From NCBI GenBank assembly GCA_963674695.2, contig CAXXGI010000001.1, positions 352,001-416,000 of the forward strand: a DNA stretch of 64,000 nucleotides, in the 5' to 3' direction. Shown in pieces: positions 25,613 to 57,223 of the stretch. Position numbers and translations under genes: made by a program. The DNA is from a bacterium (GTDB taxonomy: Bacteria > UBA10199 > 2-02-FULL-44-16 > JAAZCA01). A model generated the notes under the pieces. The model was not told where the DNA came from and ran no database searches. It worked only from the letters and a program-made list of their open reading frames with translations. Numbering within the stretch: position 1 is the stretch's first letter; each line of letters opens with the position of its first letter.

Positions 25613-25774
25613 AGACTGCTGACAAAATTATCTCATACGGTCAACCAAGGTTTGTCATTCCCGCGCAGGCGGGAATCTCGCTTGTAATGGTACATCGAGA
25701 TCCCCGCTGGAGCCTACCCTCGAATGATTGAATCGGGGGCGGGGATGACAAAAACACAGGTTTGTCATCAACCT
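25613..25774. mobile_element. MITE-like element with IS1182-like ends enclosing a GTCAT...ATGAC palindrome
   Basis: Ends AGACTGCTGACAAA / TTTGTCATCAACCT (11 of 14 complementary); near-identical ends at 28340-28471. Confidence 0.6.
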
Positions 25775-42334: not shown

Positions 42335-42397
42335 TTATCGGCTGTAGGGGGGTGCAGAAGTGCCTTGAAACGGGGAAAGCGTGGACGAAAGAGAACA
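42335..42397 (-). promoter_or_regulatory. Composite promoter: box 42380-42397, N37, GCCGATAA 42335-42342
   Basis: + strand box CGTGGACGAAAGAGAACA. Confidence 0.65.
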
Positions 42398-42453
42398 AAA
42401 TTCCCCAATGATTTCAAGGATACTATTTAGAATGGACGAGGAGAACCGCGTCC

Positions 42454-45252
42454 TCACTCATCGTCATCCGCATGAACCGTGATGTCCAGATTGGCGCAGT
42501 GCATCTGGACCTGATAGACGAAATCGTTGCACCAGTTGCCCGTGAGGCCGTAGGCCACCTGGTCTTCATCACAAGACCCATTGTATTGTGTCTCGGAACC
42601 GAGCGACGTCGCCGCGCCATATTCCACACCATGCATGCTCGTCCAGACCTGCAGGCTGTCCTTTTTGGCGAGGACGATTCCCTTCTTTCGATTCCACACC
42701 AGGGGACTGCACTTGAGCGCCGCACCGCGCATGCCGCTGAAACGAGGCTCTTCCTGACGGTTGTTGCCGCTGACGGCGATGCCCGTCACCAAGTGCCCTG
42801 GGGGACAGGCGATCTCTGCACCCTTTGTGGAGTAATCGATCGCGTTGTCGATCGCATCGACGCCGATCAGGAGACTGTCATCCCAAAGATCATTTTCATC
42901 GAGCATATCGCGGCCAACGAGATCAGCCAACACACGCGGCTCCTCTTCAAAGAGGTTTGTCTTACGATAGAGCGGTGCAACTTGCTTCAACGCCCGACGT
43001 CGATAGTTTCCCCATGTTGCTGTCACATGCCACCGAGCACTGATGCCGATCAAACCCCGAAGCAGCGGATAGGACTCATCATCATCCATCAGGTTATCGA
43101 TGGCACTGATCCATGTACTTCCATCATCACCCTTCGCCGTTCCCAGCCATGGCGTCGCGCTCACCGTTCCACTCGCCGCCACGGTGATCTCGCGCACCGG
43201 CCAGACATCGTTGCTCTCATTGACAAATGAACGACAACGCAACGCGAGCCACCGCACCATGCTCTCCTCGCGTTCAACGACATCGATCCCGGCAGCAACG
43301 CCGTTCTCACAACGGCTGGCAAAGCGCGTATCGACCCAGTGCGCACAGAAAACCCCGTTACAATCGGAACGCTCATGGATAGCACCGCTTTGATATGAAT
43401 AATCATCCACACGATTGCTACCCTCTTTTTTATTCAACCAGACATGATGACCGTTGGCACCTTCATCGTTGTCCATTGCCCCTGCCGGACCGATGAAGAC
43501 GACCAGCGGCGAGGTCGTGCTCGCGCCATTTGCCTTCACGCGAATGCGACCGTAGCCATCGACGGCCACGCACTCGAGGGCGAGCGAACCGACGTTGCGG
43601 CCATGCGCATACTTTCCGCTGGTCATATAGAGCGAGCGAACGACATAGTCTTTCGGACAATAGAGCGATTCTTCATGCTGCCCCTCGGTCTCACCGTAAT
43701 AGGTACCACGCTCCCGGAAGGCGGAGAGCCCATCGCCATAGAGAAGCCCTTCTCCTTCACCCTCTCGCCACTGACGATAGACCGGCTGCAGGCCATCGAT
43801 ATCGCCAGTACCGTCTTCGCCCACCTGCAGACGAAATCCAATGAGGAGAGCATCATCCGCTTCGGGCTCGTCGATCTTCTTCACCAATCCCGATGGATAG
43901 GGGAGGCTCTCGGTCGTAACGGGGAGCGGCTTCACCTCTCCCAGCCGGACGAGGGTTCTGTCTTTCCACGTCTTGAGCGTACCCGCGAGGCGCTCGCACC
44001 CCGCCTCCCAACCGCTTACCCCTGTAGCGAGTTCACCCTTGGGATCGAAATTGTGATACAGCTCTCCCATCGCCGCGGCCTTCAGCCTGAGATCCTTGCG
44101 CTTGACTATGCACTCGTCGCTGGCCTCTCCATAATACCCATCCCACGCTTCATAGATATCTTCCTGCGCACGAAACGCCACGTCACACTGATCCTCAGCC
44201 TTCCGCTCACACCCATCGGTGTGATCATTGGTCTCATCCTTGACGGTCGTTTCGAGCGTTTCGAGCGCGGCCTTCTCGATCTCGAGATTGGCCAGCCTCG
44301 TCTCGAGGCCCGCGCAGGCCGAGCCATCGTCTTCGAGCGTCGGGGCCAGCTCCACCTCGGCAGTCGTCACCGCCATGCCGGAAAAACGCGGGAGCTCCGT
44401 GGGCAGGGGCGGAAGGGAATCGAATTCTGTCTTTTTCACCACCGCCATGCGTTCGGGAGGAATCGGTTGATCCTTGAAGGCATGCCCTGCCATGACCCAC
44501 GTAAAGAGATCCTGCTTGGCCATGCTCCAATCCTTTTTCTGATAGCAGGCGCTGATCTTTTCTTTCGAAACGTCGCTTTCGAATGTAGTAAAATAGGGGT
44601 CGGCGGAAATCACATTCCACTTTTCTTGGCTCGACCCAAACGCATCTCCGATTTTTTCGAACCGACCATCCGTCTCATTTCTCGTCTCGATGAAGCGCTC
44701 GCCGATCTCTACAAGCGAGTGGTGATCCCAACAGTCATCATTCTTCCCTGCACCCATCGGACAGGCGGCGATGCTCTCATCGCCCTGCTCACAGAGCGCG
44801 AATGTTGTCTTCAACTCCGCAATATCCTCCTTCGATGCTTCATAGCTGCGGAGCGTCCCGGAGGCGAGGATCTCGCTGCAGGAGCGCGCGGCACACTCCG
44901 CATCGCGCTTGGCCACGAGGCCATCGGCGGCGAAGAGCTGTTCACGCAAATCCGCGATATCGCCTTCGATATCTTCGACATCGCCGCGCATGCGTTCGCA
45001 GCGGCGCAGTTCTTCTTCGGGATCGTCAGGATTGTCCGGATCGTCAGGATTGTCCGGATCGTCAGGATTATCGGGGTCGTCAGGGTCGCCGCAGAGCGGG
45101 CCGACGCAGATATCGGGAGGGTCGATGATGATGTTGTCGTCGGGGCCGTCGAGACCGAGGTCGCCCTTGCCGCCGACACCGTTTCCGGCGCTACAGGCTG
45201 AGAGCAGGGTCAAAGAGAGGACGAAGAGAAAGAGAATGACGAGTTGCCGCAT
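42454..45252 (-). CDS. Giant Cys-rich lipoprotein, paralogue 2
   Basis: First 28 aa identical to paralogue 1; PDNPDD repeat linker. Confidence 0.8.
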   Translation of the reverse strand: MRQLVILFLFVLSLTLLSACSAGNGVGGKGDLGLDGPDDNIIIDPPDICVGPLCGDPDDPDNPDDPDNPDDPDNPDDPEEELRRCERMRGDVEDIEGDIADLREQLFAADGLVAKRDAECAARSCSEILASGTLRSYEASKEDIAELKTTFALCEQGDESIAACPMGAGKNDDCWDHHSLVEIGERFIETRNETDGRFEKIGDAFGSSQEKWNVISADPYFTTFESDVSKEKISACYQKKDWSMAKQDLFTWVMAGHAFKDQPIPPERMAVVKKTEFDSLPPLPTELPRFSGMAVTTAEVELAPTLEDDGSACAGLETRLANLEIEKAALETLETTVKDETNDHTDGCERKAEDQCDVAFRAQEDIYEAWDGYYGEASDECIVKRKDLRLKAAAMGELYHNFDPKGELATGVSGWEAGCERLAGTLKTWKDRTLVRLGEVKPLPVTTESLPYPSGLVKKIDEPEADDALLIGFRLQVGEDGTGDIDGLQPVYRQWREGEGEGLLYGDGLSAFRERGTYYGETEGQHEESLYCPKDYVVRSLYMTSGKYAHGRNVGSLALECVAVDGYGRIRVKANGASTTSPLVVFIGPAGAMDNDEGANGHHVWLNKKEGSNRVDDYSYQSGAIHERSDCNGVFCAHWVDTRFASRCENGVAAGIDVVEREESMVRWLALRCRSFVNESNDVWPVREITVAASGTVSATPWLGTAKGDDGSTWISAIDNLMDDDESYPLLRGLIGISARWHVTATWGNYRRRALKQVAPLYRKTNLFEEEPRVLADLVGRDMLDENDLWDDSLLIGVDAIDNAIDYSTKGAEIACPPGHLVTGIAVSGNNRQEEPRFSGMRGAALKCSPLVWNRKKGIVLAKKDSLQVWTSMHGVEYGAATSLGSETQYNGSCDEDQVAYGLTGNWCNDFVYQVQMHCANLDITVHADDDE
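45020..45087. repeat. In-frame 18-bp repeat encoding (PDNPDD)n
   Basis: GGATCGTCAGGATTGTCC repeated with variants. Confidence 0.85.
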
Positions 45253-45272
45253 AGGAAGAACCTCCATTCCTA

Positions 45273-45336
45273 TTATCGGCTGCAACGGGGGCAGGAGGTG
45301 TGCGCGGGCACCAAAAACCGTTCACTTATGAGTACG
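45273..45336 (-). promoter_or_regulatory. Composite promoter: box 45319-45336, N38, GCCGATAA 45273-45280
   Basis: + strand box CGTTCACTTATGAGTACG. Confidence 0.6.
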
Positions 45337-45497
45337 CAGAAAGAAAACAATATCGGGAGGTTTCATTACTCCTGTCGCTTGCGGGGTTCAGAATATCCGT
45401 CACCATCCACATGACCCGGCGGGTCAGCTGACCTTGACGCTCCAGTCCTCGAATTGCTTCCGATAGGTTTCATACCCGGATTTTCCCTGGATGGGCG

Positions 45498-48254
45498 CTA
45501 TTCTTCCGGATCGGCCCAGGAGGTGGCCTTGATCGTGAGCGGAGCGCAGACGGCAGAGACCCTTCGCACAAACGCATCGGTGCGATTACCCACGATACCC
45601 ACGACCACCTCATCATCGTTTTCGCAGATTTCCTCCCACTGAGCATCACCGTCCTCGCTCGTTCCCTTCATGCTCGTCCAGGTCATATACTTCTTCGCGT
45701 CTCCCTGTTTAATCGCATCGGAATCCTTGAAATACGCGATCGGTGTACACCGCAGCGCAACCCCTCGAGTCTGTGTCAGCATATATCTTCCCCTATAACG
45801 TTTCCCCGCAATGCCGGTGACGACATGACCGGCCGGGCAGGAGATTTTGGTCCCCCAATCGTTCAGCCGATCCACATCCCCATTGTCATAGTTCGTCATG
45901 CTGTTGACAAAACTGGGGATGATCATTTCACCAAAGCAGAGCGGATCGTCCGAGCCCCCGCAGATCACGCCATCAACGAACAGATCCCGAGGTTGCCGAA
46001 AAACGGGCGTCAAAAAAGAGACCGCATATTCCCCAGATGAATTCGATCCACTCACATCCTTTTCCATACGAGACACACGGATACCGGTCACGACGGGACT
46101 TCCCTCCCCTTCCCAGGCATCCCAATCGGGCTCGACCGTCTTCTTGATCTTCTCTTGTTTTTCAAAAAACACTTTTTCCACATTGTACCGCTCCGCACTC
46201 TCATCGACCTTGATCTCGACGGACCATGACTTGTATTTTCCCTCGTTCTCGAACGGACGGCAGTTGAGCCAGAGTTCATGGATGCGCGTATCCTTCTCAT
46301 TCGTGTAGCCATGGAGACCGGTCGCAACGCCGTCTTCGCACGCGCTCTGAAATCGCGTGAGCGGCCAGTGGGCACAGAACTGCCCATAACAATCCTCGCG
46401 ATCCTTGATCAACTTACTCGCCCGATCATCAGGATGGGTATCATCGCCGACTTTTCCGACCGGGGTCAGGTGGAGCGTGAGGAATTTCCCCGTATCATAG
46501 TCATCTTCATCCGCGGCATGGAGGCGCACGCGACCATGGCCATCGATGGCCACGCACTGGGCCGCGAGCGAGCCGACGTTGCGACCAGAACCGGAGTGTC
46601 CCTTGGTCATGAAGATACGGCTGATCGCGTATCCGGCCGGGCAACGCATCTGCGAAGAGGACTGCCCGTCTTTTTTCTTCTGACGACCGAACGATCCCCC
46701 CGATGTCCGCTCTCCCACCAGACCGCCGATACCGTCTTCGCTCTCCATCGCGGGAATCCAGTCCTGATAAATAGGCGTCACACCGGTGAGATCGCCCCCG
46801 CTCCAGAGGTCGAAGCCGACGAGGACTCGGTTGCTGACGGCATTTGTCACAAAATGCGTCCACTCCACCCGATCCCCTGCCTGTGGGTGCCAATTCGGAT
46901 CGCCGGTGGAGGTGCGATTCTCCTCGCCCAGCCGAAGGACGTTGTCCTTCTTCCAGACCTCAAACTCCTTCTTCATCAGCGCACAACTCGTCAACCCATC
47001 CTGCATCGCTGAAGCGATATCGCCCGTCGACGCGAACAACAGATACTTCTCGCCAACCTGTGCGGCCTTCTCCACGAGCGCGCTGCGCTTGACCATGCAC
47101 CCACCGATGGCAGTCGTCTCGTCCTTGCGCTTCCCATAAAACGTCTTCCACGCCTCATAGATATCGTCCTGCGCGCGCAACGCCTCGTTGCACTGATCCT
47201 CCGCCTTCCGCTTGCAGCCATTTTCACGACCGTTCGTTTCATCTTTGACCGCATCCTGCAGATTTTTCAGTGCCGTCTTCTCCGCCTCGAGATTCGCCAG
47301 CCGCGTCTCGAGCCCTTCACAGGCCGAGCCATCGTCGAAGAGTGCTCGCGCCGCTGCAACCAAAGCGGGTGCGACCGCAATGCCACCAAACTGAGGAAGA
47401 ACCTCTGGAGGCACGGGGAGAGAGGAACTCGCCACGGATGTCTGTTCCGCTGCAATCGGATGGGCATCGACCCGGCGCAGAAGCGACCGGCCTCCGACGA
47501 GCTCTGTTCCGATACCACCCCGTCTTTCCGTGTCGAGGCAGGCATCGATATGCGCGGAATCGCTCGCATTGCGAAAGGCTTCGAGATAGCCGTCCGCCCG
47601 GATGTCATCCTCTTGGTCGGCCAAGAGGGTGTAGACCTTCGCCTGGGCCTGAACGCGCGGTTCGGTCTTTTTTGCGACCCGGCCGATCTCGGTGGCGATC
47701 CCTGAGAGCGAATAGTGATCCCAGCAATCGTCCTTGCCGTTGGCACCCATGGTGCATTTGGAAATGCTCGCATCGCCCTTTTCACAGCGCCCAAACTCCG
47801 CGGCCAGATCGGCGATTTTCTCTTTCGAGGCCTCATGGCTCCGGATCGTCCCGGAGGCCACAATCGCTTCACAGGAGCGCGCGCTACAAGTTGCATCGCG
47901 CTGGGCCACGAGACCGTCGGCCGCAAAGAGGCGTTCGCGCAGATCCGCGACATCGCCTTCGATCTCCTCGACATCGTCGCGCATCGCCTCGCAGCGGCGG
48001 ACCTCAACTTCGGCCTCTTCCGCTTCATCCTCAACATCATTGTCGACATCAGCATCGTCAGCATCACCATCATCATCGTTCTCGTCATCGCTGCAAAGCG
48101 GGCCGACGCAGAGATCGGGGCCATCGACGATGATACTATCGTCGGGACCATCGAGGACGAGGTCCCCCTCGCCATCGACGCCATTTCCGGCGCTGCAGGC
48201 GGAGAAAGCGATAATCATGAACGTGATGAGGATGAGGGAGGAGATATTCCGCAT
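45498..48254 (-). CDS. Giant Cys-rich lipoprotein, paralogue 3 (probably leaderless mRNA)
   Basis: Lipobox FSAC; ATG 7 nt after GCCGATAA with no SD. Confidence 0.8.
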   Translation of the reverse strand: MRNISSLILITFMIIAFSACSAGNGVDGEGDLVLDGPDDSIIVDGPDLCVGPLCSDDENDDDGDADDADVDNDVEDEAEEAEVEVRRCEAMRDDVEEIEGDVADLRERLFAADGLVAQRDATCSARSCEAIVASGTIRSHEASKEKIADLAAEFGRCEKGDASISKCTMGANGKDDCWDHYSLSGIATEIGRVAKKTEPRVQAQAKVYTLLADQEDDIRADGYLEAFRNASDSAHIDACLDTERRGGIGTELVGGRSLLRRVDAHPIAAEQTSVASSSLPVPPEVLPQFGGIAVAPALVAAARALFDDGSACEGLETRLANLEAEKTALKNLQDAVKDETNGRENGCKRKAEDQCNEALRAQDDIYEAWKTFYGKRKDETTAIGGCMVKRSALVEKAAQVGEKYLLFASTGDIASAMQDGLTSCALMKKEFEVWKKDNVLRLGEENRTSTGDPNWHPQAGDRVEWTHFVTNAVSNRVLVGFDLWSGGDLTGVTPIYQDWIPAMESEDGIGGLVGERTSGGSFGRQKKKDGQSSSQMRCPAGYAISRIFMTKGHSGSGRNVGSLAAQCVAIDGHGRVRLHAADEDDYDTGKFLTLHLTPVGKVGDDTHPDDRASKLIKDREDCYGQFCAHWPLTRFQSACEDGVATGLHGYTNEKDTRIHELWLNCRPFENEGKYKSWSVEIKVDESAERYNVEKVFFEKQEKIKKTVEPDWDAWEGEGSPVVTGIRVSRMEKDVSGSNSSGEYAVSFLTPVFRQPRDLFVDGVICGGSDDPLCFGEMIIPSFVNSMTNYDNGDVDRLNDWGTKISCPAGHVVTGIAGKRYRGRYMLTQTRGVALRCTPIAYFKDSDAIKQGDAKKYMTWTSMKGTSEDGDAQWEEICENDDEVVVGIVGNRTDAFVRRVSAVCAPLTIKATSWADPEE

Positions 48255-48261
48255 GTTAGGA

Positions 48262-48324
48262 TTATCGGCAGGCCGGGGGGGCAAAGGTGCCGCGAAACGG
48301 AGATACCGTGGACAGAAGAGAACG
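48262..48324 (-). promoter_or_regulatory. Composite promoter: box 48307-48324, N37, GCCGATAA 48262-48269
   Basis: + strand box CGTGGACAGAAGAGAACG. Confidence 0.65.
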
Positions 48325-48506
48325 AATTTCCTGAATCATTTCAAGGTTACTCGATAGAACTGACCGACGGAAAAAAGAGGCGAGAACGTGACAGCATTGA
48401 AATGGAGGTTGACGGATCGGGCAGGCGCATGCTACCCCGACGCCACTAATCAGCTTAGAATTCAAGTGTTTACAACGTTTTGGATTTTATAAACGAAGGA
48501 GGCATC

Positions 48507-50399
48507 ATGAACGCACGCAGCGCAGGGGCCGAACCAGCCCTCGACCTGAACACCACCTCGAAGATCGGGCAGCAGGGGCGCACAATCGTGCGCGGTCGCA
48601 CCCGGCCCGGATTTCTCAACGAACAGCAGCCGAGCATGACCTATTCGGGCCACCCGATCCGTGAGGTCCCCTGGACACTCCCCTACTGGACCACCTCGCT
48701 CTGCCCCGAGTGCAAGGCGATCATCCGCGCGCGCAAATATGCCGAAGATGGATGCGTCTATATGGAAAAAGAGTGCGCCGAACACGGCTACTTCCGCGAA
48801 CGCCTCTCGCGCGACACGAACTTCTATCTGCAGATGTTCACCAATCGCTATGGCGACAATCGCGGCTTTTCGAATCCGCTGGCGCGAACCGATGCGAAAG
48901 CGGAATGCCCCAGCAACTGTGGCATCTGCAACATGCACCACTCGCATACCTGCATGTCCAACGTGGATCTCACCAACCGGTGCGACATGCGCTGCCCGGT
49001 CTGTTTCGCCAACGCCGCGGCCATGGGCTATATCACCGAACCGGGCCTCGACCAGGTGCGCGCGATGCTCGAGACCCTTCGCAACCGCAAGCCCGTGCCG
49101 TGCAAGGTGGTGCAGTTCTCGGGCGGAGAGCCCACCTGCCATCCGCAGTTCATCGAGATCCTCCAGATGGCCAAGGGCATGGGGTTCGAGCACATCCAGA
49201 TCGCGACCAACGGCAAGAACATGTCCGATCTCGACTTCGCACGCCGCTGCCGCGAAGCGGGGTTGGCGAGCCTCTATCTGCAGTTCGACGGCGTCACCGA
49301 CGAGGTTTATAGCAAGACGCGTGCGGAAAAGGACCTGTTGCGCGTGAAGCTGCAGGTGCTGGAGGTCTGCCGCGAGGTGGGCCTGCGCGTCGTGCTGGTG
49401 CCAACGATCATTCGCGGACTCAACGACCATCACGTCGGTGCGATCACCCGCTTTGCGTGCGACAACTCCGATGTCGTCACGGGCGTCTCCTTTCAGCCGG
49501 TCTGCTTCACCGGGCGCATCTCGGAGAAGGATCGCACGGAGCAGCGCTATACCATCACGGATCTCGCGCTCGATATCGAAGGACAGACCAGCGGGCTCAT
49601 GCCGAGCGTGAACTGGTTTCCGCTCGGGGCCACACAACCGCTCTCGAAACTCTCGGAGGCATTCGCGGGAAAACCCGCCTTCTTCGTCTCCTGCCACCCG
49701 GACTGCGGCGGCGGCGGATATCTCTTCATCAACCCGAACGATCCGAACGAGATCGTCCCGCTCACACAGTTCTTCGACTTGAACGGCGCACTGGCCGACG
49801 TAAACTCGCTGGCGCAGCGCATCGCTCGGCGCCGCAGCCGCCTCTGGTATCGGTGGGCCACCGCCCTCGGGCTCAAGAAATCCGCCGATCTCATCGGGGG
49901 CTTGGGCGCACTGCGCATTCTCAAACGCCACTTTGATGAGAGCAAGGCGCCGACAGGCTTAACGCTCAAGCGCATCTTGGGCGTCATCGAGGGTTATCGC
50001 AACACGCGGCGCGGGCGACAGACCGACGCCGAGCGCACCTTCAGCTACAACACCGTCTTCATCGCGGGCATGCACTTCCAGGACGTCTACAACTATGACA
50101 CCGAGCGCACGCGTCGCTGTGTGATCCATCAGTCGGCGCCGGATGGGAAGATGTATCCGTTCTGCACCTATAACTCCGGCCCCTACTATCGCGAGCGCGT
50201 CGAGGAGCAGATGCAGACGACGACGGCGGATGACTATGTGGCCAGCAGCGATACGCACGCGAGCGACGATCGGAAGAAGCGTTTCAACCCGGATCCCAAA
50301 CTGCGCGAGATCGTCGTGAAGGACTACGGCGTGGGCAATGCGGGCGATCACTTTGAAATCCCGGAGAACTACGGCTGTTGTTCGACGGCGAAGGCTTGA
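48507..50399 (+). CDS. tes: Radical SAM protein of the tetraether lipid synthase (Tes/GDGT-MAS, MJ0619) family
   Basis: Rubredoxin-like SLCPEC...KECAEHG, CPSNCGICNMH, VDLTNRCDMRCPVCFANA, QFSGGEPT, YLQFDG, CHPDCG, MHFQD, CVIH...PFCTYN. Confidence 0.8.
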   Translation: MNARSAGAEPALDLNTTSKIGQQGRTIVRGRTRPGFLNEQQPSMTYSGHPIREVPWTLPYWTTSLCPECKAIIRARKYAEDGCVYMEKECAEHGYFRERLSRDTNFYLQMFTNRYGDNRGFSNPLARTDAKAECPSNCGICNMHHSHTCMSNVDLTNRCDMRCPVCFANAAAMGYITEPGLDQVRAMLETLRNRKPVPCKVVQFSGGEPTCHPQFIEILQMAKGMGFEHIQIATNGKNMSDLDFARRCREAGLASLYLQFDGVTDEVYSKTRAEKDLLRVKLQVLEVCREVGLRVVLVPTIIRGLNDHHVGAITRFACDNSDVVTGVSFQPVCFTGRISEKDRTEQRYTITDLALDIEGQTSGLMPSVNWFPLGATQPLSKLSEAFAGKPAFFVSCHPDCGGGGYLFINPNDPNEIVPLTQFFDLNGALADVNSLAQRIARRRSRLWYRWATALGLKKSADLIGGLGALRILKRHFDESKAPTGLTLKRILGVIEGYRNTRRGRQTDAERTFSYNTVFIAGMHFQDVYNYDTERTRRCVIHQSAPDGKMYPFCTYNSGPYYRERVEEQMQTTTADDYVASSDTHASDDRKKRFNPDPKLREIVVKDYGVGNAGDHFEIPENYGCCSTAKA

Positions 50400-50442
50400 C
50401 GGCCGTGACACGTGACACGTAACACGTGATTCGTACAAAAAC

Positions 50443-50480
50443 GTAAAAAGACCGGCGCTCACAAGCGCCGGTCTTTTTAC
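50443..50480. terminator. Bidirectional terminator
   Basis: GTAAAAAGACCGGCGCT...AGCGCCGGTCTTTTTAC. Confidence 0.85.
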
Positions 50481-50502
50481 ATGGACGAAAAGCACTGCCG
50501 TT

Positions 50503-50688
50503 GTCATTCCCGCCCTTCGACTACGCTCAGGACAGGCTCCAGCGGGAATCTCGCTGTATCGTAAAAATCGAGATTCCCGCCTTCGCGGGAATGACAAACA
50601 GAGGCGGGAATGACAAACAGAGGCGGAGATGACAAACAGAGGCGGGAATGACAAACAGAGGCGGAGATGACAAACGGAGAAATGACAC
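50503..50688. repeat. GTCAT...ATGAC palindromic element followed by five tandem 19-bp copies of its right end
   Basis: GCGG(GA/AG)ATGACAAACAGAG x5 at 50585-50679, no spacers. Confidence 0.9.
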
Positions 50689-50703
50689 TGTTTGGAATCC
50701 GTT

Positions 50704-51396
50704 TCACTCCGACCAGAGCAGGCGTTCGCGGATGCGGCGCTCGGCGCGGGCAAAACGCGCGCGATATTTTGGGTGGGTGATCATCTTGGGGTTGGGCAGG
50801 AGCGAGGCGAGCTTCGCCGCCTGAACGATGTTCAGACCTGAGGCGCTCGTGCCGACGTGATAGCGCGCGCCGAGCTCGGCGCCGTAGATGCGCGGCGCAA
50901 ACTCGGCGACGTTGAGATACATTTCAAGAATGCGCTCCTTGGAGAGCATCGTCTCCATCGCGAGTGCAAGCCAGACCTCGTTCCACTTGCGCATCCACGT
51001 CCGTTTCGGGCCGAGGAATATATTCTTGGCCGTCTGCATCGTGATGGACGATGCGCCCCGCACGACACGCCCCGCACGAATATTGGCGAGAATCGAGTTG
51101 GCGATGAGAACGCCATCGAGGCCATGATGCGCGAAGAAGCGCGGATCCTCCGCCTCGATCACCGCACGGCGCAAGATGGGCGCGATGCGATCAAGGGCAA
51201 CCCACTGCTGTACGACCGGACGCGAACAGCTCCGCATGAAGGGCGTGGTCGTCGGGTTCTGCTCACGCAACTGCGCCACCGCAGACACGCCCCGTCCGAT
51301 GAGGAGCATGCCCGCGATAAAGGCACAGACGATACCGATGGAAATCAATCGCTTCAAAAGGGCAGATCCTCCTGGGAAAGAGCATGCGCCGTTCAC
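50704..51396 (-). CDS. mtgA: Monofunctional biosynthetic peptidoglycan transglycosylase
   Basis: AEDPRFFAHHG, RGASSITMQTAKN, RKWNE, KERILEMYLN. Confidence 0.92.
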   Translation of the reverse strand: MNGACSFPGGSALLKRLISIGIVCAFIAGMLLIGRGVSAVAQLREQNPTTTPFMRSCSRPVVQQWVALDRIAPILRRAVIEAEDPRFFAHHGLDGVLIANSILANIRAGRVVRGASSITMQTAKNIFLGPKRTWMRKWNEVWLALAMETMLSKERILEMYLNVAEFAPRIYGAELGARYHVGTSASGLNIVQAAKLASLLPNPKMITHPKYRARFARAERRIRERLLWSE

Positions 51397-52478
51397 CGCG
51401 GAAATTCCTGCGAAGCCACTTCAATCGTATGTCCCGTCACACCCGGCGCCCACATCTCTGCCTTGAGGGCATCGACGCTGGAGAAGCTCGAATAGGTCAG
51501 CACCGATCCCTCGCCAGTGACCAGCAACGGTTTGCAGGGATAGCCGTATTTCCCTGAAACCCCCTTTGAACACTTGTTGGTAAACTGCCCGAGTCCGGTG
51601 GGATTTCCATCCACCAGTACGCCAGCGGTGCTATAGCTGATTCCATCGTGTTCTTGAAGAAAGTCGATCGCCTGGGCGATAAGACCGTTATCGTTGCCAT
51701 CCCAGGACAGACTTCCCATCATCCGTTTGAAGTTGTCATAGAACCCCTCCATGTGGCCAGCAAAGTCTTTTTGCTGACCATCTTTATCCTCATGATACAT
51801 CCCGTGCAGCCAGGTCGGAACATAAACGATCGCCTCTTGTCCTTCCGGCACGAACCACGAAACACGGTAGACGCCGCGATCATTCCGCCCATTCTCGCGA
51901 TCATGGTCCGTCTGATCGACAAACTCGACATTGAGGGCAAACACATCCGCATCGTCATCGTCGCCCGTCTGCGTTCCGGTGCCATTGCCATGTCCGCCAC
52001 CGCCGGTCACACCATCGTCGTCATCATCATCATCGTCATCGCCAACGACCGCTTCGCCATCGATGACGAGTTCCACGGTATTCGATTCCAGAATCCCATC
52101 CTCCGTCTCGCGCAGGACCTTCACGGAGACACTCCCCGCCTCGATCGCGGGCACGGTGAACGGGACCTGCCCGTCGATGGCATCGGGCTCGGCCGAGCTC
52201 ATCAGGCCCGAGAGAAAAGCGTTGCTGCTCACCGTAGCCACGATGGTCTGGTCTCCCACCATCACCTCGTCGGTCGTCGCATCCAGCCCCTCGCCGTAGA
52301 GGATGACGGTCTCGCCCGGGGCCGCACTGGAAACGCTGATCCCGTCCACACGGAGGCCATTGCCACCACCGCCGGGACCATCGCCACCGCCGCCAAAACC
52401 GGAATCATCGCCGCCACCGGAACAGCCGGCCGACATGAGTACCCCCACCAGGATCAGCACTATTGATTTCCGATGCAT
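51393..52478 (-). CDS. Lipoprotein with IPT/TIG-like domain and acidic linker
   Basis: Lipobox SAGC, Gly linker, AAPGETVILYGEGL; GTGA overlap with mtgA. Confidence 0.75.
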   Translation of the reverse strand: MHRKSIVLILVGVLMSAGCSGGGDDSGFGGGGDGPGGGGNGLRVDGISVSSAAPGETVILYGEGLDATTDEVMVGDQTIVATVSSNAFLSGLMSSAEPDAIDGQVPFTVPAIEAGSVSVKVLRETEDGILESNTVELVIDGEAVVGDDDDDDDDDGVTGGGGHGNGTGTQTGDDDDADVFALNVEFVDQTDHDRENGRNDRGVYRVSWFVPEGQEAIVYVPTWLHGMYHEDKDGQQKDFAGHMEGFYDNFKRMMGSLSWDGNDNGLIAQAIDFLQEHDGISYSTAGVLVDGNPTGLGQFTNKCSKGVSGKYGYPCKPLLVTGEGSVLTYSSFSSVDALKAEMWAPGVTGHTIEVASQEFPR

Positions 52479-52511
52479 ACAACCTCCTTATAATACATTC
52501 CCCAGTTAGGT

Positions 52512-52574
52512 GTATCGGCTGCCGACCCCCCGCATATCCTCTCGAGACCGATTTATCGTGCACGGGCGTACACA
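52512..52574 (-). promoter_or_regulatory. Composite promoter: box 52557-52574, N37, GCCGATAC 52512-52519
   Basis: + strand box CGTGCACGGGCGTACACA. Confidence 0.7.
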
Positions 52575-52631
52575 CGGCGATTGCGGTGCCACTCAGAATT
52601 GTCGACTTCCCCTATACGAACGCACAGGATG

Positions 52632-52649
52632 GGTGTATACTAGTCCACA
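52632..52649. promoter_or_regulatory. Box copy overlapping a TATACT (-10-like) hexamer upstream of the TIGR02147 gene
   Basis: GGTGTATACTAGTCCACA. Confidence 0.55.
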
Positions 52650-52688
52650 CTGAATATTGGCACCGGACAGTTCTAGGTGGAGGCAGCG

Positions 52689-53537
52689 ATGGTCAGCATC
52701 TATCAATATCTGGACTACCGAAAATTCCTGCTCGACTATTACGAGGAGAAGAAACGCACGACCAAGACGATGTCCTACCGCAACTTCGCGCGCGCAGCGG
52801 GGCTTGCCGGGTGGAACTATTTAAAGCTCGTCGTCGACGGCAAGCGCAACCTCTCGGCCAGCTCTATCGCCAAGTTCGCCAAGGCGCTCAAACTCAAAAA
52901 ACGCGAGACTGACTTTTTCAGCATCCTGGTCAGCATGAACCAGAGCAGCGATCCGGAGGAGAAGAGCCGCTATTACGAAAAGCTGATGACCTTCCGGCGG
53001 TTCAACGAAATTCACCGGATGGAGAACGACATCTATCAGCTGCTCAGCCGCTGGTATATCGCTGCGGTGCACGAGCTGGTGGCGCTGCCGGATTTCGACA
53101 CGGATCCGCGCTGGATCGCGCAGCAGCTGCGCCCCAACATCACGATCGCCGAAGCGAAGAAGGCACTCGAGATTCTGCAGCACCTGGGGCTGATCAAGAT
53201 CGATCGTGAAAAGAATATGACCGTGCAGACCAAGGGACACTTCGCGACCCCCGATCAGGTCAGCGGCATCGCCATCTTCAACTTTCAGAAGGAGATGCTG
53301 GCACTGGCGCACAACGCCCTGCGCTATCGCTCCTCGCGCATCCGCGACATCTCGGGACTGACCATCGCGCTCTCGCCGGAGGGGTTCGACACCGCCAAGG
53401 ACATGATCCGCGAGTTCCGTCGCGGCCTGCACGCCAAGCTGGCCACGGGGGGACAACCCACCGCCGTCTATCAGCTCAACTTTCAGATCTTTCCGCTCAG
53501 CGAGGTCAAGGCGACCCGCGCCGCTCCTTCCGAATAA
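52689..53537 (+). CDS. TIGR02147 / DUF4423 family protein, putative DNA-binding regulator
   Basis: YLDYRKFL, SYRNFARAAG, YLKLVVDGKRNLS, RWYIAAVHEL, WIAQQLRP, RDISGLT, VYQLNFQIFPL. Confidence 0.88.
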   Translation: MVSIYQYLDYRKFLLDYYEEKKRTTKTMSYRNFARAAGLAGWNYLKLVVDGKRNLSASSIAKFAKALKLKKRETDFFSILVSMNQSSDPEEKSRYYEKLMTFRRFNEIHRMENDIYQLLSRWYIAAVHELVALPDFDTDPRWIAQQLRPNITIAEAKKALEILQHLGLIKIDREKNMTVQTKGHFATPDQVSGIAIFNFQKEMLALAHNALRYRSSRIRDISGLTIALSPEGFDTAKDMIREFRRGLHAKLATGGQPTAVYQLNFQIFPLSEVKATRAAPSE

Positions 53538-53570
53538 ATTCTGCATATTCAGGTCGGATTGGTGAGAAAG

Positions 53571-53588
53571 TGGGTACAGGTGTACACA
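53571..53588. promoter_or_regulatory. Box copy upstream of the 53736 lipoprotein
   Basis: TGGGTACAGGTGTACACA. Confidence 0.65.
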
Positions 53589-53735
53589 CCTGCGCCTGCA
53601 AAAAAGCACTATTTTACCATTGCCTTCAAGGCGTTCGACCGATCCTGACCCGTTTTTTCGCCTCGGCTCCCCACGCAACCGAACCCCACGCCAGAACCGA
53701 TAACCCAGATAGAAACGACGCATCGAGGAGGAGTC

Positions 53736-54434
53736 ATGAATATCCGCATCGCATTGACCATCATCATCTGCCTCTGCTTCATGAGCGCGTGCAGCGTGAG
53801 CCGCAGCATCGAGGTGGGAAATCCCCTCGAGACCGAAGCGCCTGAACCCAACTCCTCCTATACGAACCATGCGTTCGGCGTGGCGATGACGGTGCGATCG
53901 GATTTCCAGATCGCCGAGGAGGAAGCGAGCTTTGTCCGTTTCGAGGATGATGCCACCTCGTTCGTACAGTGCACGTTCGCCTGGGGAAACTGTCCGGCAT
54001 CCGTCGCGGCCGCTATCGATGAGACCGATTACATCCACCAGTACCTGAGCGCCCTGTCGATGTATGATGACCGAGCCGTCTGCATTACAGTCGAGGGCGT
54101 CATCAGACCGGGGATCAGCGCTGATGACGACAGGCCAATCGTTGCGATCGATACCGACCACACGCCGGGAGATCCGAACACCGATACAACCGAGCCGGGT
54201 CCACAGGCCGGCGATGGAGCGAAGGAGACGCCCTCCTGCACCGACGCGACCTGTGCCGAAGCACCGGCGACGGTGCCAGGCGATGGGGTCAGCAGCCGCA
54301 CGCCTCCGACACCGGTCGATGCGGATGAAGCAAGCGCCGAAGAGGAGGAAGATGCCCCCGCATGCACCGACGAGACCTGTGCCGAGGCCCCGAGCACCGG
54401 TCTGGGTGGCAGCATCGGCGGTTTGATGCCTTAA
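53736..54434 (+). CDS. Lipoprotein with SIEVGNP motif and acidic tail
   Basis: RBS GAGGAG, lipobox MSAC; GCAACCGA-N13-ACCGATAA at 53675-53703. Confidence 0.75.
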   Translation: MNIRIALTIIICLCFMSACSVSRSIEVGNPLETEAPEPNSSYTNHAFGVAMTVRSDFQIAEEEASFVRFEDDATSFVQCTFAWGNCPASVAAAIDETDYIHQYLSALSMYDDRAVCITVEGVIRPGISADDDRPIVAIDTDHTPGDPNTDTTEPGPQAGDGAKETPSCTDATCAEAPATVPGDGVSSRTPPTPVDADEASAEEEEDAPACTDETCAEAPSTGLGGSIGGLMP

Positions 54435-54583
54435 GGTCCATTTCCCCCCTTTTTCCATCGAATGATCGTCAAAATATTGACGGTCATTCTTTTTTTGGCA
54501 AAAAAGCAACTCCATCCCCCCTGGCTGCCGATAACTCTGACAGATCTGAATGGCACTGAACGCCGATAGGAAAGTGGTTGATA

Positions 54584-54599
54584 TGGCACATCTCTTGCT
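54584..54599 (+). promoter_or_regulatory. sigma54 promoter TGGCACATCTCTTGCT
   Basis: Exact TGGCAC-N5-TTGCT consensus 34 nt before ATG 54634. Confidence 0.75.
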
Positions 54600-54633
54600 T
54601 CATTTAAGACGTGGTACCCAGGAGAGGACGCTC

Positions 54634-55458
54634 ATGAAACGGATCCTTATGGCGCTAGCCCTGTTCGCCCTGCTTGCAGGAGGGGTTGGCTGCACCGGCA
54701 TGCAGAAGAGCATCGAGGTGGGCAATCCGCAGGAAGAAGAGACGCCGATGCCCGTCTTGGAAGTTGAGAACGAATATTACGGCGTCACCGTGAAAGTGCG
54801 CGAAGACTTCCAGTTCAGCGCACAGAGCGATAGCGCCTGGGTTCTCGAAAAGTTCCCCTCCACCGTCAAACTCGATTTCAGCTGGGATGACGGCAACTGC
54901 CCACCGTTGGAATCGACCCATGAAGAGGACGGCTTTGTCATCGTCGAAAAGCGAGAGTCCGTCCTGTCGACGAAGGAAGACCGCGGTGTCTGCATTGAAA
55001 CCTATGGCCGGATCATGAACAACGAGATCATCCCGGGGGGCAGTGACCCAGTCGATACCGACCCGAACGATATGGTGATAGCAAATGACGGCGTCGACCC
55101 GAACAAGCTCAACGATCCGAATAAAGATCCGCTGGGGAATCTCTCCGGAGGAGGGGGCGGATCCGGCGGCGGCGAAAAGGAAATCTACGACGGCGAAGAG
55201 GACCCCGAGATCGTCGTGCGCAGCAATACGGGTGGCGGCGGAGGTTCCCCTGTCGCCCCGCACGACTACGATATGCATACCAACACCCCCCCTGGCGAAA
55301 TCCAGACCCAGCCCGGCGAAGGCTACATACACGATGGCGACGCGATGGAACGCGCCGACGACAGTCCCTACCAACGTCAGCAGGGTGATTACCGTTGGAG
55401 AACTCCCTCTCGGGGCACGATACAGATTCCCGGCGACGACGACGATGATGACGATTGA
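54634..55458 (+). CDS. Lipoprotein paralogous to 53736 (SIEVGNP motif)
   Basis: Lipobox GVGC; shared GVxxxVRxDFQ, W..GNCP and DRxVCI; GCAACTCC-N13-GCCGATAA at 54506-54534. Confidence 0.75.
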   Translation: MKRILMALALFALLAGGVGCTGMQKSIEVGNPQEEETPMPVLEVENEYYGVTVKVREDFQFSAQSDSAWVLEKFPSTVKLDFSWDDGNCPPLESTHEEDGFVIVEKRESVLSTKEDRGVCIETYGRIMNNEIIPGGSDPVDTDPNDMVIANDGVDPNKLNDPNKDPLGNLSGGGGGSGGGEKEIYDGEEDPEIVVRSNTGGGGGSPVAPHDYDMHTNTPPGEIQTQPGEGYIHDGDAMERADDSPYQRQQGDYRWRTPSRGTIQIPGDDDDDDD

Positions 55459-55470
55459 GATCGACGAAAA

Positions 55471-55508
55471 CAAAAAAGCCCGGCACCATTTGGCGCCGGG
55501 CTTTTTTG
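55471..55508. terminator. Bidirectional terminator
   Basis: AAAAAAGCCCGGC...GCCGGGCTTTTTT. Confidence 0.85.
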
Positions 55509-55525
55509 TATCCATCACCTATTGA

Positions 55526-55978
55526 TCAGGAGACCTTGCACAGACAGTTCGCGCAGAGGTTCCCCGAGGCACAGGCATGCACCTCTTCGCCAATCCTGCC
55601 CCGAACATTCTCATCGACACTGCGCGGGGTGACCTCCCACAACCCCGCCTCGATCAACCATTTGCGGATCGTCTCGCGGGAAAGATCGAGCCCCTTGCTG
55701 TCCACGACATCCCGAACGAACATGCTGATCGCACGCCCTCGATAGCATTCGCGATAGAGGCCAACGACCTCATCCTTGATGATGGTGGGCTTGGCCCGAT
55801 TCGACCGCCGCCCCTTGAGCCCGTGCACGAGGCCATCGGCACCACGCGCCTTGAAGCGAATGACGCGACGCCCGATCGTGCGCGTACTGCATCCCAGAAT
55901 GACCGCCGCCTCCTTATAGGAGAGCACCCCATTCAACACTCGCTCCAACACCTCTGTCTGATACGCGATCGTCATCAT
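55526..55978 (-). CDS. HTH protein related to the ISNCY/IS481 transposase N-terminus, with Cys-rich tail (copy 1)
   Basis: EAAVILGCSTRTIGR, GADGLVHGLKGRRSNR, LSRETIRKWLIEAGLW; ends CASGNLCANCLCKVS; no DDE domain. Confidence 0.8.
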   Translation of the reverse strand: MMTIAYQTEVLERVLNGVLSYKEAAVILGCSTRTIGRRVIRFKARGADGLVHGLKGRRSNRAKPTIIKDEVVGLYRECYRGRAISMFVRDVVDSKGLDLSRETIRKWLIEAGLWEVTPRSVDENVRGRIGEEVHACASGNLCANCLCKVS

Positions 55979-56040
55979 GCCTCCCGGTCTGTTGCAGTCC
56001 TCGCTGGTTTTTGTTTTGCTGCTGCCGTGTTCTGTCTGAA

Positions 56041-56103
56041 TTATCGGCAGCTCCGCCCCAAATGGTGCGCGACAAAACAATAAAGCGTGGACTTCTGTAC
56101 ACA
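56041..56103 (-). promoter_or_regulatory. Composite promoter: box 56086-56103, N37, GCCGATAA 56041-56048
   Basis: + strand box CGTGGACTTCTGTACACA. Confidence 0.7.
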
Positions 56104-56265
56104 TTCAATTCAATGATTATTTAAGAATTTCATGGAGATATGGTAATTATCGCCAAGGCAAATACATGCACATTTAACACCAAAGAACACCCTTGTACGC
56201 AGGCGTCACCCCCATCGACATCGAGGGAAAATGCTGTATCTCATCGGAATGATGGGGATAAAGAA

Positions 56266-56294
56266 AACCCCGACCAGGATCACTGGTCGGGGTT
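56266..56294. terminator. Hairpin downstream of HTH copy 2
   Basis: AACCCCGACCAG...CTGGTCGGGGTT followed by a T-tract on the minus strand. Confidence 0.7.
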
Positions 56295-56333
56295 CGGATA
56301 GATATCGATCGATCAGAAGGAAATACACCGTTT

Positions 56334-56810
56334 CTACGACACCTTGTTCAGACACTCCCTGCAGTCATGCGCCTCGGCACAGGCACACGGGGCAACAACG
56401 GGTTCTCCCTGCGGCGTCCCTTCGATCGCCGTCGGTACTGAGGACTGACAGGGGCGACCACGGCATCCCGCCTCCCACAGGCCCGCTTCGATGAGCCACT
56501 TGCGGATCGTCTCGCGGGAGAGGTCGATCCCCTTGCGTTCGACCTGACGGATGAAATCGCTGAGCGACTTCACTTCAGCCTGTTCCTGGAAGATCAGGAC
56601 CACCTGCTCCTTCAGATTCTCCGGCTTGGCGCGATTGCTGCGTCGACCCGTCAGACGATGCATCAGGCCGTCGGCGCCCAGGAGTTTATACCGGGCCAGT
56701 TTACGCTGCACCGTACGGATGCTGCAGGACATGAGCCCGGAAGCCTCCTGATGCGTGATCTGTCCTGCGATGATGCTGTCGAGCACTGCCTTCTGATATC
56801 GAATACTCAT
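56334..56810 (-). CDS. HTH protein related to the ISNCY/IS481 transposase N-terminus, with Cys-rich tail (copy 2)
   Basis: GADGLMHRLTGRRSNRAKP, LSRETIRKWLIEAGLW; ends CACAEAHDCRECLNKVS. Confidence 0.8.
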   Translation of the reverse strand: MSIRYQKAVLDSIIAGQITHQEASGLMSCSIRTVQRKLARYKLLGADGLMHRLTGRRSNRAKPENLKEQVVLIFQEQAEVKSLSDFIRQVERKGIDLSRETIRKWLIEAGLWEAGCRGRPCQSSVPTAIEGTPQGEPVVAPCACAEAHDCRECLNKVS

Positions 56811-56859
56811 GTGATGTCCCCAATCTGTTGTGACGCCCCCTGTGTCAGTTCTGTCTGGA

Positions 56860-56947
56860 TTATCGGTTGGCGACAGATGAAAGGTGTGCGGCAAGATACG
56901 AAAGCGTGCACAGCGAAACACGTGGCTGTGTACAGATGTACACAGCC
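56860..56947 (-). promoter_or_regulatory. Composite promoter: ACCGATAA 56860-56867, N37, box 56905-56922, plus perfect box 56927-56944
   Basis: CGTGCACAGCGAAACACG and the palindrome GGCTGTGTACA-GA-TGTACACAGCC. Confidence 0.7.
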
Positions 56948-57024
56948 GGACCCTATCTATGTAATTGAATTTATTGAATTCTTCTTGTCCGCGACAGGCG
57001 AAAAAGGCGAAAAAAGGAGGGGTT

Positions 57025-57042
57025 TGTGTACAGCTGTGCACA
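57025..57042. promoter_or_regulatory. Additional box copy
   Basis: TGTGTACAGCTGTGCACA. Confidence 0.65.
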
Positions 57043-57120
57043 GTCGTGTACCGCCACATCGTCACATTGACGAGGCTCGATAGATCGTAGAGCCATTATA
57101 ATGATAGCGGTGGAACGGGT

Positions 57121-57223
57121 GTCATTCCCGCGAAGGCGGGAATCTCGATTTTTCAAGCACATCGAGATTCCCGCCTTCGCGGGAATGACAACAAATCGAG
57201 ATTCCCGCCTTCGCGGGAATGAC
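57121..57223. repeat. GTCAT...ATGAC palindromic element with duplicated right arm
   Basis: GTCATTCCCGCGAAGGCGGGAATCTCGAT and two copies of ATCGAGATTCCCGCCTTCGCGGGAATGAC. Confidence 0.9.

Follow-up and report, generated by a model that had tools for sequence, protein, structure and literature searches.

In a 64,000-nucleotide (nt) stretch of DNA from an uncultured bacterium (hereafter the window), six minus-strand genes carry an 18-nt box at a nearly constant distance upstream of a sigma-28-like -10 element, which raises the question of which protein reads this box and what it does to the promoters below it. The window is C1:352001-416000 of a 3.03-Mb genome of 58.6% G+C, assembled in three contigs (C1 to C3) and rated 100% complete. 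Among these genes lies one of the TIGR02147/DUF4423 family (52689..53537, plus strand, 282 amino acids (aa)), divergent from one of the box promoters. We propose, with a probability of roughly 0.6, that a dimer of this protein binds the box, that the promoters belong to a class served by a FliA/WhiG-like sigma factor, that the paralogues of the family have operators of their own, and that binding activates transcription in a class I-like manner. All of the support presented here is computational. Three DNA-type sequencing runs, all of one study, contain the segment 51300-57300, and no RNA run was listed for it.

Re-reading of the sequence found the six boxes reported in the initial annotation in place on the plus strand, letter for letter, and reproduced their gaps of 37, 38, 37, 37, 37 and 37 nt from the minus-strand octamer (G/A)CCGATA(A/C). 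The lipoA promoter (42335..42397, minus strand, as are the other five) comprises a -10 octamer at 42335-42342, a -35-like GGCACTT and the box at 42380-42397 (TGTTCTCTTTCGTCCACG on the minus strand) with a gap of 37 nt; it is also a match of the weight matrix described below (C1:394342). In the lipoB promoter (45273..45336) the octamer at 45273-45280 and the box at 45319-45336 are 38 nt apart, and in the lipoC promoter (48262..48324) the octamer at 48262-48269, preceded by the -35 GCACCTT, lies 37 nt from the box at 48307-48324. The lipoD-mtgA promoter (52512..52574) has the -10 GCCGATAC at 52512-52519, no recognisable -35, and the strict box GTGTAC-GCCC-GTGCAC at 52558-52573 (gap 37). The HTH1 promoter (56041..56103) combines an octamer at 56041-56048, the -35 GCACCAT and the strict box GTGTAC-AGAA-GTCCAC at 56087-56102 (gap 37), and the HTH2 promoter (56860..56922) the -10 ACCGATAA at 56860-56867 with a box at 56905-56922 (gap 37). 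Read on the transcribed strand, the strict form of the box is GTNNAC-N4-GTNNAC, 16 bp with the two hexamers one helical turn apart, and 38 nt separate the end of the proximal hexamer from the -10 octamer. The proximal hexamer, GT[G/C/A][C/A]ACG, varies little; the distal one is less strict. The genome holds 21 strict sites, and all five of those in the window fall within 52.5-57.1 kb. A loose sigma-54-like match, TGGCACCGCAATCGC, was also seen at 52577-52591 on the minus strand, directly upstream of the lipoD box; the pattern was relaxed and the match may be due to chance.

Throughout, shuffles, patterns read backwards or the reversed genome served as controls, and counts are given as real versus control. 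CCGATA occurs 44 times in the window versus 25.5 ± 4.9 in shuffles, none of 100 shuffles reaching 44. The predicted spacing peak was found genome-wide: GTNNACG occurs 98 times within 0-103 nt upstream of 875 RCCGATA[ACT] sites, and 12 of these cases have gaps of 36-38 nt, compared to a mean of 0.94 per gap. The composite GTSMACG-N35-39-RCCGATAM gave 8 matches in the genome versus 0 when read backwards. Loose boxes taken alone were not enriched in the genome (GTNNAC-N4-GTNNAC, 42 versus 46; GTSMACGSTWT, 21 versus 21), so that the signal lies in position and clustering only. Four more promoters with the box layout were found outside the window (C3:276584-276647, C3:1035368-1035431 and, on the minus strand, C2:357173-357232 and C2:331140-331185), and the regulon, at first taken to be six local promoters, thus holds ten in the genome. 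Surface lipoproteins had been named as its targets; lipoprotein genes are indeed included, among them a leucine-rich repeat (LRR) lipoprotein (C3:276673), and other kinds of genes are targeted as well, with a signal-peptide protein (C3:1035471) behind another of the outside promoters.

The arrangement is also kept in relatives. In G008, a genome of the same family and another genus, orthologues of lipoD, of the TIGR02147 gene (68% identity) and of the following gene, lipoG, are syntenic, with lipoD and TIGR02147 divergent. The lipoD promoter of G008 carries GTGTAC-ACCG-GTCCAC 39 nt from ACCGATAC, with a spacer sequence unrelated to that in the window, and the orthologues of the two HTH genes have GTGTAC-AGCG-GTCCAC and GTATAC-AATT-GTTTAC, 39 and 38 nt from the -10. 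For lipoC no orthologue was found in G008 at E <= 1e-10. The pattern GTNNAC-N4-GTNNAC-N36-40-CCGATA gave 43 matches versus 4 in 61 related genomes and 55 versus 7 in 93 genomes of the phylum; at least two of the 43 (in G004 and G009) are LexA-like GTGAAC-N4-GTTCAC sites that have to be discounted, and the match in G003 is a direct GTGAAC repeat. The composite in its first wording, with a half-site ending in ACG, stayed at chance level in 60 relatives (15 versus 13), and the signal emerged only with the strand-symmetric strict form.

Could the shared layout simply reflect promoter duplication, or chance, and carry no regulatory meaning? Three of the six genes are paralogues that encode lipoproteins of about 920 aa with mutual identities of 37-45% and no Pfam family, all on the minus strand: lipoA (39561..42314, 917 aa), lipoB (42454..45252, 44% identical to lipoA) and lipoC (45498..48254, 45% identical to lipoA). 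Moreover, the upstream regions of lipoA and lipoC are similar along their entire length, as after duplication, so that the six promoters amount to about five independent cases. However, unrelated genes have the box, the -35 and the -10 in common but not the spacers, the real matches number 8-55 versus 0-7 in the controls, and the boxes were kept in G008 although the spacer had diverged. This makes duplication or chance an extremely improbable explanation. We conclude that the box is a real, position-locked cis element.

It is not one single box, as had been assumed, but a family of paralogue- and genome-specific dyads at one position. Box matches concentrate in certain genomes, and the palindrome differs from genome to genome: GTCCACAATTGTGGAC in G056 (5 matches), GTATACC.CGGTAYAC in G011 (5), GTTGAC/GTAAAC types in G022 (11), GTTTAC..GTAAAC in G072 (5) and GTTGAC..GTCMAC in G075 (6), with GTATACCNCGGTATAC and GTTGAC..GTCAAC as further examples. 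A LexA reading of GTGAACG half-sites was rejected, because genuine Cheo-like palindromes (GTGAAC-N4-GTTCAC) form a distinct set of sites, which overlie TTGACA promoters. Separately, palindromes of the form TTGACAAGTGAAC-N4-GTTCAC, which resemble Cheo-type LexA boxes, lie over a TTGACA hexamer at C1:302009-302024 and C3:977198-977213, and similar ones occur in G004 and G009.

The promoters themselves belong to a larger class. Their sigma-28-like -10, proposed from the start, was borne out as an RCCGATAA(T) element, and alignment of the promoters revealed a -35 that had been missed, GCAC(C)TT, which precedes the octamer by about 15 nt. GCA[AC]C-N15-18-RCCGATA[ACT] occurs at 51 sites versus 2 in the reversed genome, and a two-block position weight matrix (PWM) found 81 sites versus 4, or 102 versus 12 at a looser threshold. 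The class consensus, with about 80-100 sites in the genome, consists of a T-rich tract, AC, GCAACTT, N14/15 and (G/A)CCGATAAT. The class carries the sigma-28-type -10 element GCCGATAA; the classical sigma-28 -35, TAAA about 15 nt upstream of GCCGATAA, was at control level (TAAA-N14-16-RCCGATA, 4 versus 3), and GCAAC(TT) stands at the equivalent place. Data showed the class in 57 of the 61 related genomes, with 2 control matches overall. The public relatives are uncultured metagenome-assembled genomes, mostly labelled Deltaproteobacteria or Pseudomonadota.

The rRNA promoter of this genome is TTGACA-N17-TAGAAC, which indicates that the class is not the housekeeping one and is read by an alternative sigma factor. 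Seven proteins of the sigma-70 family are encoded: RpoD, an RpoH-like protein, three of the extracytoplasmic function (ECF) type, a 924-aa sigma and one FliA/WhiG-like protein. The 924-aa frame (C3:147918-150692) has a complete sigma-70 domain set at its end (RpoD_Cterm, 125 bits) behind a repetitive N-terminal extension of about 650 aa that matches no family. One of the two strongest class promoters of the genome lies 0.83 kb upstream of the FliA-like sigma gene on the same strand, and eight other genomes have class promoters in the same orientation 0.7-3.2 kb upstream of the orthologous gene, which fits positive autoregulation. The reader of the class is most likely this conserved FliA/WhiG-like sigma of the lineage. 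Its gene clusters with genes for a FliG_M-like (C3:9988-10416, cut by the end of the locus) and a FliM-like protein (C3:14963-15454) within C3:8530-15454, and an FHIPEP gene lies at C1:140970-142961. Flagellin N and C domains and the rod/hook C-terminal domain (PF00669, PF00700 and PF06429) were unmatched in this genome, complete as it is rated, and the flagellar genes may here form a flagellum-derived export apparatus without a filament.

To identify what binds the box, we turned to the TIGR02147 genes, whose family is reported to be expanded in Fibrobacter and Bdellovibrio. We considered 54 of them, namely those whose upstream DNA was examined (29 of 36 plus 25 of 48 listed). A strict box lies within 330 nt upstream of seven, compared to about 0.26 expected. 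Box promoters stand divergent from a TIGR02147 gene, at about 115-230 bp, in the genome of the window and in G008, G022, G044 and G075, and in G022 and G056 a TIGR02147 gene is driven directly by a box promoter. As an out-of-sample case, G072 and G075 were chosen solely for their 5 and 6 box matches; TIGR02147 genes number 11 in the former and 9 in the latter, where one box promoter is divergent from such a gene, at 214 bp. Twelve genomes without TIGR02147 have 2 box matches in total and twelve with at least six copies have 35, related genomes not being independent.

The genome of the window has six TIGR02147 paralogues, and other forms of the dyad are found beside them. Two of the other paralogues neighbor lipoprotein genes whose promoters have GTGTTC-N6-GAACAC and GTATTC-N6-GAATAC at the same spacing from the -10, and GTCGAC-ATCT-GTCTTC lies about 38-39 nt from ACCGATAC at the promoter of a lipoD paralogue that diverges from yet another, fourth TIGR02147 gene. 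In 13 of the 54 genes the start is preceded, at 26-48 nt, by a class promoter; five of these 13 are orthologues and share GTnnnC-N5-GAACAC, with exactly 38 nt between its end and GCCGATAAT. The position of the proximal hexamer is constant whether the spacing is N4, N5 or N6, its end lying 38-39 nt from the octamer (39 in two G008 promoters), and it is the distal hexamer that shifts. Orthologue groups of TIGR02147 keep both the recognition helix and the hexamers, a pattern that does not separate the hypotheses. We also observed that the divergent TIGR02147/lipoprotein pair is itself duplicated (C2:635346-637493 and C1:208796-211000): a lipoD paralogue (40% identity) faces the TIGR02147 gene at C2:636693 and a 394-aa lipoprotein gene the one at C1:209614, each lipoprotein gene having a class promoter and a dyad of its own.

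These associations leave some room for another binder, either a different factor conserved in the phylum or the alpha subunit of RNA polymerase, with TIGR02147 genes and their neighbors as frequent members of the regulon. Regulon members they are in any case, given the 13 genes transcribed from class promoters; in addition, 38 of 44 box promoters in eight other genomes are not beside a TIGR02147 gene (the other 6 lie within 230 bp of one), and G036 has many TIGR02147 copies and no strict box. On the other hand, the sequence and spacing of the dyad vary between paralogous modules and genomes, which calls for a multi-paralogue, fast-diverging binder, and TIGR02147 is the only family of this kind seen at box loci. 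The genomes lacking TIGR02147 have next to no matches, as noted above, and sites at the own or the divergent promoter are the usual signature of a regulator itself. On balance, we regard another binder as unlikely.

The TIGR02147 protein of the window scores above the curated cut-offs of its families (TIGR02147, 231.3 bits versus 50; PF14394, 126.4 bits versus 30). An AlphaFold2 model of it reached a predicted local distance difference test score (pLDDT) of 87.7 and a predicted template modelling score of 0.76. Residues 7-91 of the model match helix-turn-helix (HTH) domains of the XRE type, with Z 8.6 and a root mean square deviation (rmsd) of 3.3 over 82 aligned residues for 3pxp_A, and Z 7.5 and rmsd 2.5 over 73 for DdrO (6jq1_A). 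C.AhdI (1y7y_B) was matched with a Foldseek probability of 1.00 over 55 columns of the model, and C.BclI was matched by sequence profile at E = 0.027. Residues ~109-190 resemble winged-helix domains (Z ~7-7.6). A fold relative over the full length was not found by Foldseek at E <= 0.001, and the VIA wide search returned domain-level matches only (Z <= 8.6). Homodimer prediction gave a score of 0.66, compared to 0.02 for the best control, through residues ~197-274 in the DUF4423 part; the runs agreed in at least 95% of contacts, and the partner pLDDT was at least 83. Of 30 proteins solved as one-chain pairs, 20 scored at least this high, as did 1 of 23 solved as single chains; these counts are a rough guide only, since an alignment of our own was used. 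The protein is thus predicted to be an XRE-type HTH dimer with a five-helix fold. Together with the association in several genomes, this model and the predicted homodimer make TIGR02147 the best candidate for the binder. A full-text literature search for TIGR02147/DUF4423 returned no described function or operator; a proteome table for Bdellovibrio (PMC12546842) gives Bd3700 as a DUF4423 protein.

The HTH genes of the locus provide a second set of candidates. HTH1 (55526..55978, 150 aa, with a Cys-rich C terminus) and HTH2 (56334..56810, 158 aa, 45% identical to HTH1) are minus-strand paralogues with HTH_28/HTH_29 domains and, besides these, a leucine-zipper-like match; a third copy lies at C2:309782. 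If these proteins bound the box, the tandem boxes and the perfect palindrome ahead of HTH2 would serve their autoregulation, and the TIGR02147 gene would be a mere neighbor. In favor of this, both HTH genes have box promoters, which their G008 orthologues retain, and HTH2 has three to four extra boxes. One of these is the perfect palindrome GTGTAC-AGAT-GTACAC (56928..56943), 6 nt upstream of the HTH2 promoter box with the two centers 22 bp apart. About 100 nt beyond it lies a triplet of hexamers at 10-bp spacing, GTGTAC/GTGCAC/GTGTAC (57026..57051), which forms overlapping strict boxes at 57026-57041 and 57036-57051 some 160 nt upstream of the HTH2 -10. However, a search with HTH2 at E <= 0.001 found no homologue in G011 (5 box promoters), G018 (2) and G056 (5), and only matches of 30-34% identity in G022 and G044; HTH1 at E <= 1e-8 found matches in 3 of 13 family genomes. 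The third copy lacks a clear box, and no HTH homologue was found in 30 box loci from other genomes, G008 excepted. The HTH proteins, initially listed as alternative binders, therefore remain candidates but weaker ones in view of the three box-bearing genomes without a homologue. From these sequence comparisons, they look like conserved targets rather than binders, and we consider it quite improbable that they recognize the box.

The region upstream of HTH2 contains further repeats. A palindromic repeat, ATTCCCGC-N4-GCGGGAAT, has 195 copies in the genome, with window copies at 57124-57220, 50573-50592 and 25657-25676. Upstream of the HTH2 box cluster there are three consecutive copies, and single copies were seen ahead of the gene for the third HTH paralogue (C2:309.5 kb) and after the class promoter C3:129753.

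The initial annotation had also listed four further boxes and had the TIGR02147 protein repress itself through one of them. Those at 56927 and 57025, both upstream of HTH2, match the strict form, whereas at 53571 there is only one GTGTACAC hexamer pair and no full box. The one at 52632, said to lie over a TATACT, has one mismatch (GTGTAT-ACTA-GTCCAC, 52633..52648) and is found 41 nt before the start codon of the TIGR02147 gene and 9 nt before a TGGCAC. No sigma-70-like promoter was found in 52400-52760, which leaves the self-repression idea without a promoter to act on. Sigma-54-type TGGCAC-N5-TTGC elements are enriched genome-wide (58 versus 3) and lie upstream of 4 of the 54 TIGR02147 genes (including C2:102180, C2:636620 and L057 of G008). 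The element is perfect at the orthologue in G008 and at the closest paralogue (C2:102240); the TIGR02147 gene of the window keeps only its TGGCAC half.

Does the protein, once bound, activate or repress? For enteric sigma-28 promoters, transcription starts 7-8 nt after the octamer. If this holds here, the operator would span about -69 to -54 with its center at about -61. Activation is most likely, as judged from position alone: the box lies upstream of the core elements without overlap and at a fixed distance, and the lipoD promoter has no recognisable -35. TIGR02147 may instead bind the box and repress or anti-activate, for instance by looping between tandem and distal boxes. XRE-type HTH dimers, including controller proteins and DdrO, are often repressors, and the spacings of 22 and ~100 bp between the HTH2 boxes would suit cooperative repression. 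Furthermore, the -35 elements of box promoters do not differ significantly from those of other class promoters (5.4 versus 6.0 of 7 matches, p = 0.10, a trend only, for 8 versus 62 promoters, the lipoD and C2:357173 promoters being omitted because they fall below the PWM threshold). A weaker -35 would be expected of promoters that depend on an activator. In contrast, all ten promoters have a single box upstream of the -35 and -10 without overlap, the distance of the proximal hexamer is fixed across N4, N5 and N6, which suits contact with the polymerase, and no -35 is recognisable in the lipoD promoter. Repression or looping is unlikely but keeps some probability, most of all at HTH2 with its several boxes.

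Taken together, we favor activation by TIGR02147 dimers and envisage the following mechanism. The FliA/WhiG-like sigma would read the class promoters, a subset of which carries the 16-bp two-hexamer operator. On this operator would sit a TIGR02147/DUF4423 dimer, contacting DNA through the N-terminal XRE-type HTH and dimerizing through the C-terminal DUF4423 part. Each paralogue would have drifted to hexamers and a spacing of its own (N4, N5 or N6), usually retaining a site at its own promoter or at that of the divergent neighbor. Boxes of the GTGTAC/GTSCAC type, at lipoD, HTH1 and HTH2, would be read by the copy in the window (52689-53537), and this copy or close paralogues may serve the GT(C/G)(C/A)ACG boxes of lipoA, lipoB and lipoC and of the four promoters elsewhere. 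Placed at about -61, the dimer would aid the polymerase as class I activators do, and the T-rich tract between box and -35 could be a docking site for the alpha C-terminal domain.

Several findings weigh against this proposal, in addition to the duplicated DNA upstream of lipoA and lipoC and the -35 comparison given above. The best family of the FliA/WhiG-like sigma (C3:8530-9399) is TIGR02479 (FliA_WhiG) at 132.4 bits, under the cut-off of 189.6, and since 60 of the 61 genomes encode this sigma, presence and absence cannot tie it to the promoter class. The fold matches of the TIGR02147 model are middling (Z < 9) and may reflect only a common arrangement. G036 has 18 TIGR02147 genes and 0 strict box matches, and 5 of the 12 genomes with at least six copies have none, so the strict motif does not go with every member of the family. 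Box promoters and TIGR02147 genes are always on different contigs in G011, G018 and G072, whose assemblies are fragmented. The paralogue at C2:470810 has no clear dyad. Adjacency would also arise if TIGR02147 genes were favored targets of another factor.

The remaining genes of the locus fit around this module. lipoD (51393-52478, minus strand) encodes a 361-aa lipoprotein with a weak TIG match, and its stop is overlapped by the start of mtgA (50704-51396, minus strand), which encodes a peptidoglycan transglycosylase (PF00912, 157 bits), the pair spanning 50704..52478. On the plus strand, lipoG (53696..54434 including its promoter) has a class promoter without a strict box, GCAACCG-N14-ACCGATAA, with the -10 at 53696-53703. 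lipoH (54527..55458 including its promoter, plus strand) has the class promoter GCAACTC-N14-GCCGATAA with the -10 at 54527-54534. A sigma-54-type TGGCAC-N5-TTGC at 54584-54598, about 50 nt after this class promoter, may mean that lipoH has two promoters for different sigmas.

The closest known system is the FliA regulon of Bdellovibrio bacteriovorus (Karunker et al. 2013, PMC3627812), where 92 of 140 attack-phase promoters, including those of many non-flagellar genes, have TTAAG-N16-CCGATA, an element attributed to FliA. The two systems share the -10 CCGATA with a pentamer about 16 nt upstream, the reach of sigma-28-type promoters far beyond flagella to surface or secreted proteins and regulators, and the presence of TIGR02147/DUF4423 genes. 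They differ in the -35, here GCAAC(TT) and not TTAAG or TAAA, in that no flagellin or rod/hook domain was found here, and in that the passages of PMC3627812 consulted mention neither an operator upstream of the Bdellovibrio promoters nor a partner regulator.

Class I activation, with an operator at about -61.5, is the paradigm of CRP. Like it, the promoters described here have a dyad at a fixed distance, centered at about -61 if transcription begins 7-8 nt past the octamer, and a T-rich tract before the -35. Unlike it, they would use a sigma-28-like factor and not sigma-70, their binder is no CRP/FNR protein, and the position derives from the enteric start rule. The N-terminal 90 residues of the TIGR02147 model match restriction-modification controller (C) proteins and other XRE dimers (C.AhdI, C.Esp1396I, DdrO, HigA), and a TIGR02147 dimer would be expected, as they do, to bind two-part operators with sites at its own gene, whereas TIGR02147 proteins have 280 aa, a winged-helix-like module (~109-190), a dimer interface in DUF4423 and many paralogues, up to 18 per genome. 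To our knowledge, dependence of sigma-28-type promoters on an upstream regulator is unusual. The widening of a sigma-28 regulon beyond flagella is already known from Bdellovibrio, and a regulator combined with an operator and an alternative sigma is a familiar kind of system; the -35 variant GCAACTT, the absence of flagellin, the fixed upstream operator and the link to a paralogue-rich regulator family appear new.

Our analysis thus describes a promoter grammar for an uncultured phylum, a sigma-28-like class with the -35 GCAACTT present in 57 of 61 genomes. For TIGR02147/DUF4423 it offers the hypothesis of a first testable function, composed of an operator (GTNNAC-N4-GTNNAC), a position 38 nt from the -10 and a partner promoter class. 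More tentatively, and as a possibility we would not yet lean on, the TIGR02147/DUF4423 proteins as a whole may be dimeric regulators dedicated to sigma-28-type promoters, acting from one position at about -61 with a hexamer pair of its own for each paralogue. Surface and secreted proteins would then be under a combinatorial code of sigma factor and paralogue, and this would explain the expansion of the family in Bdellovibrio, with its FliA attack-phase programme, and in Fibrobacter.

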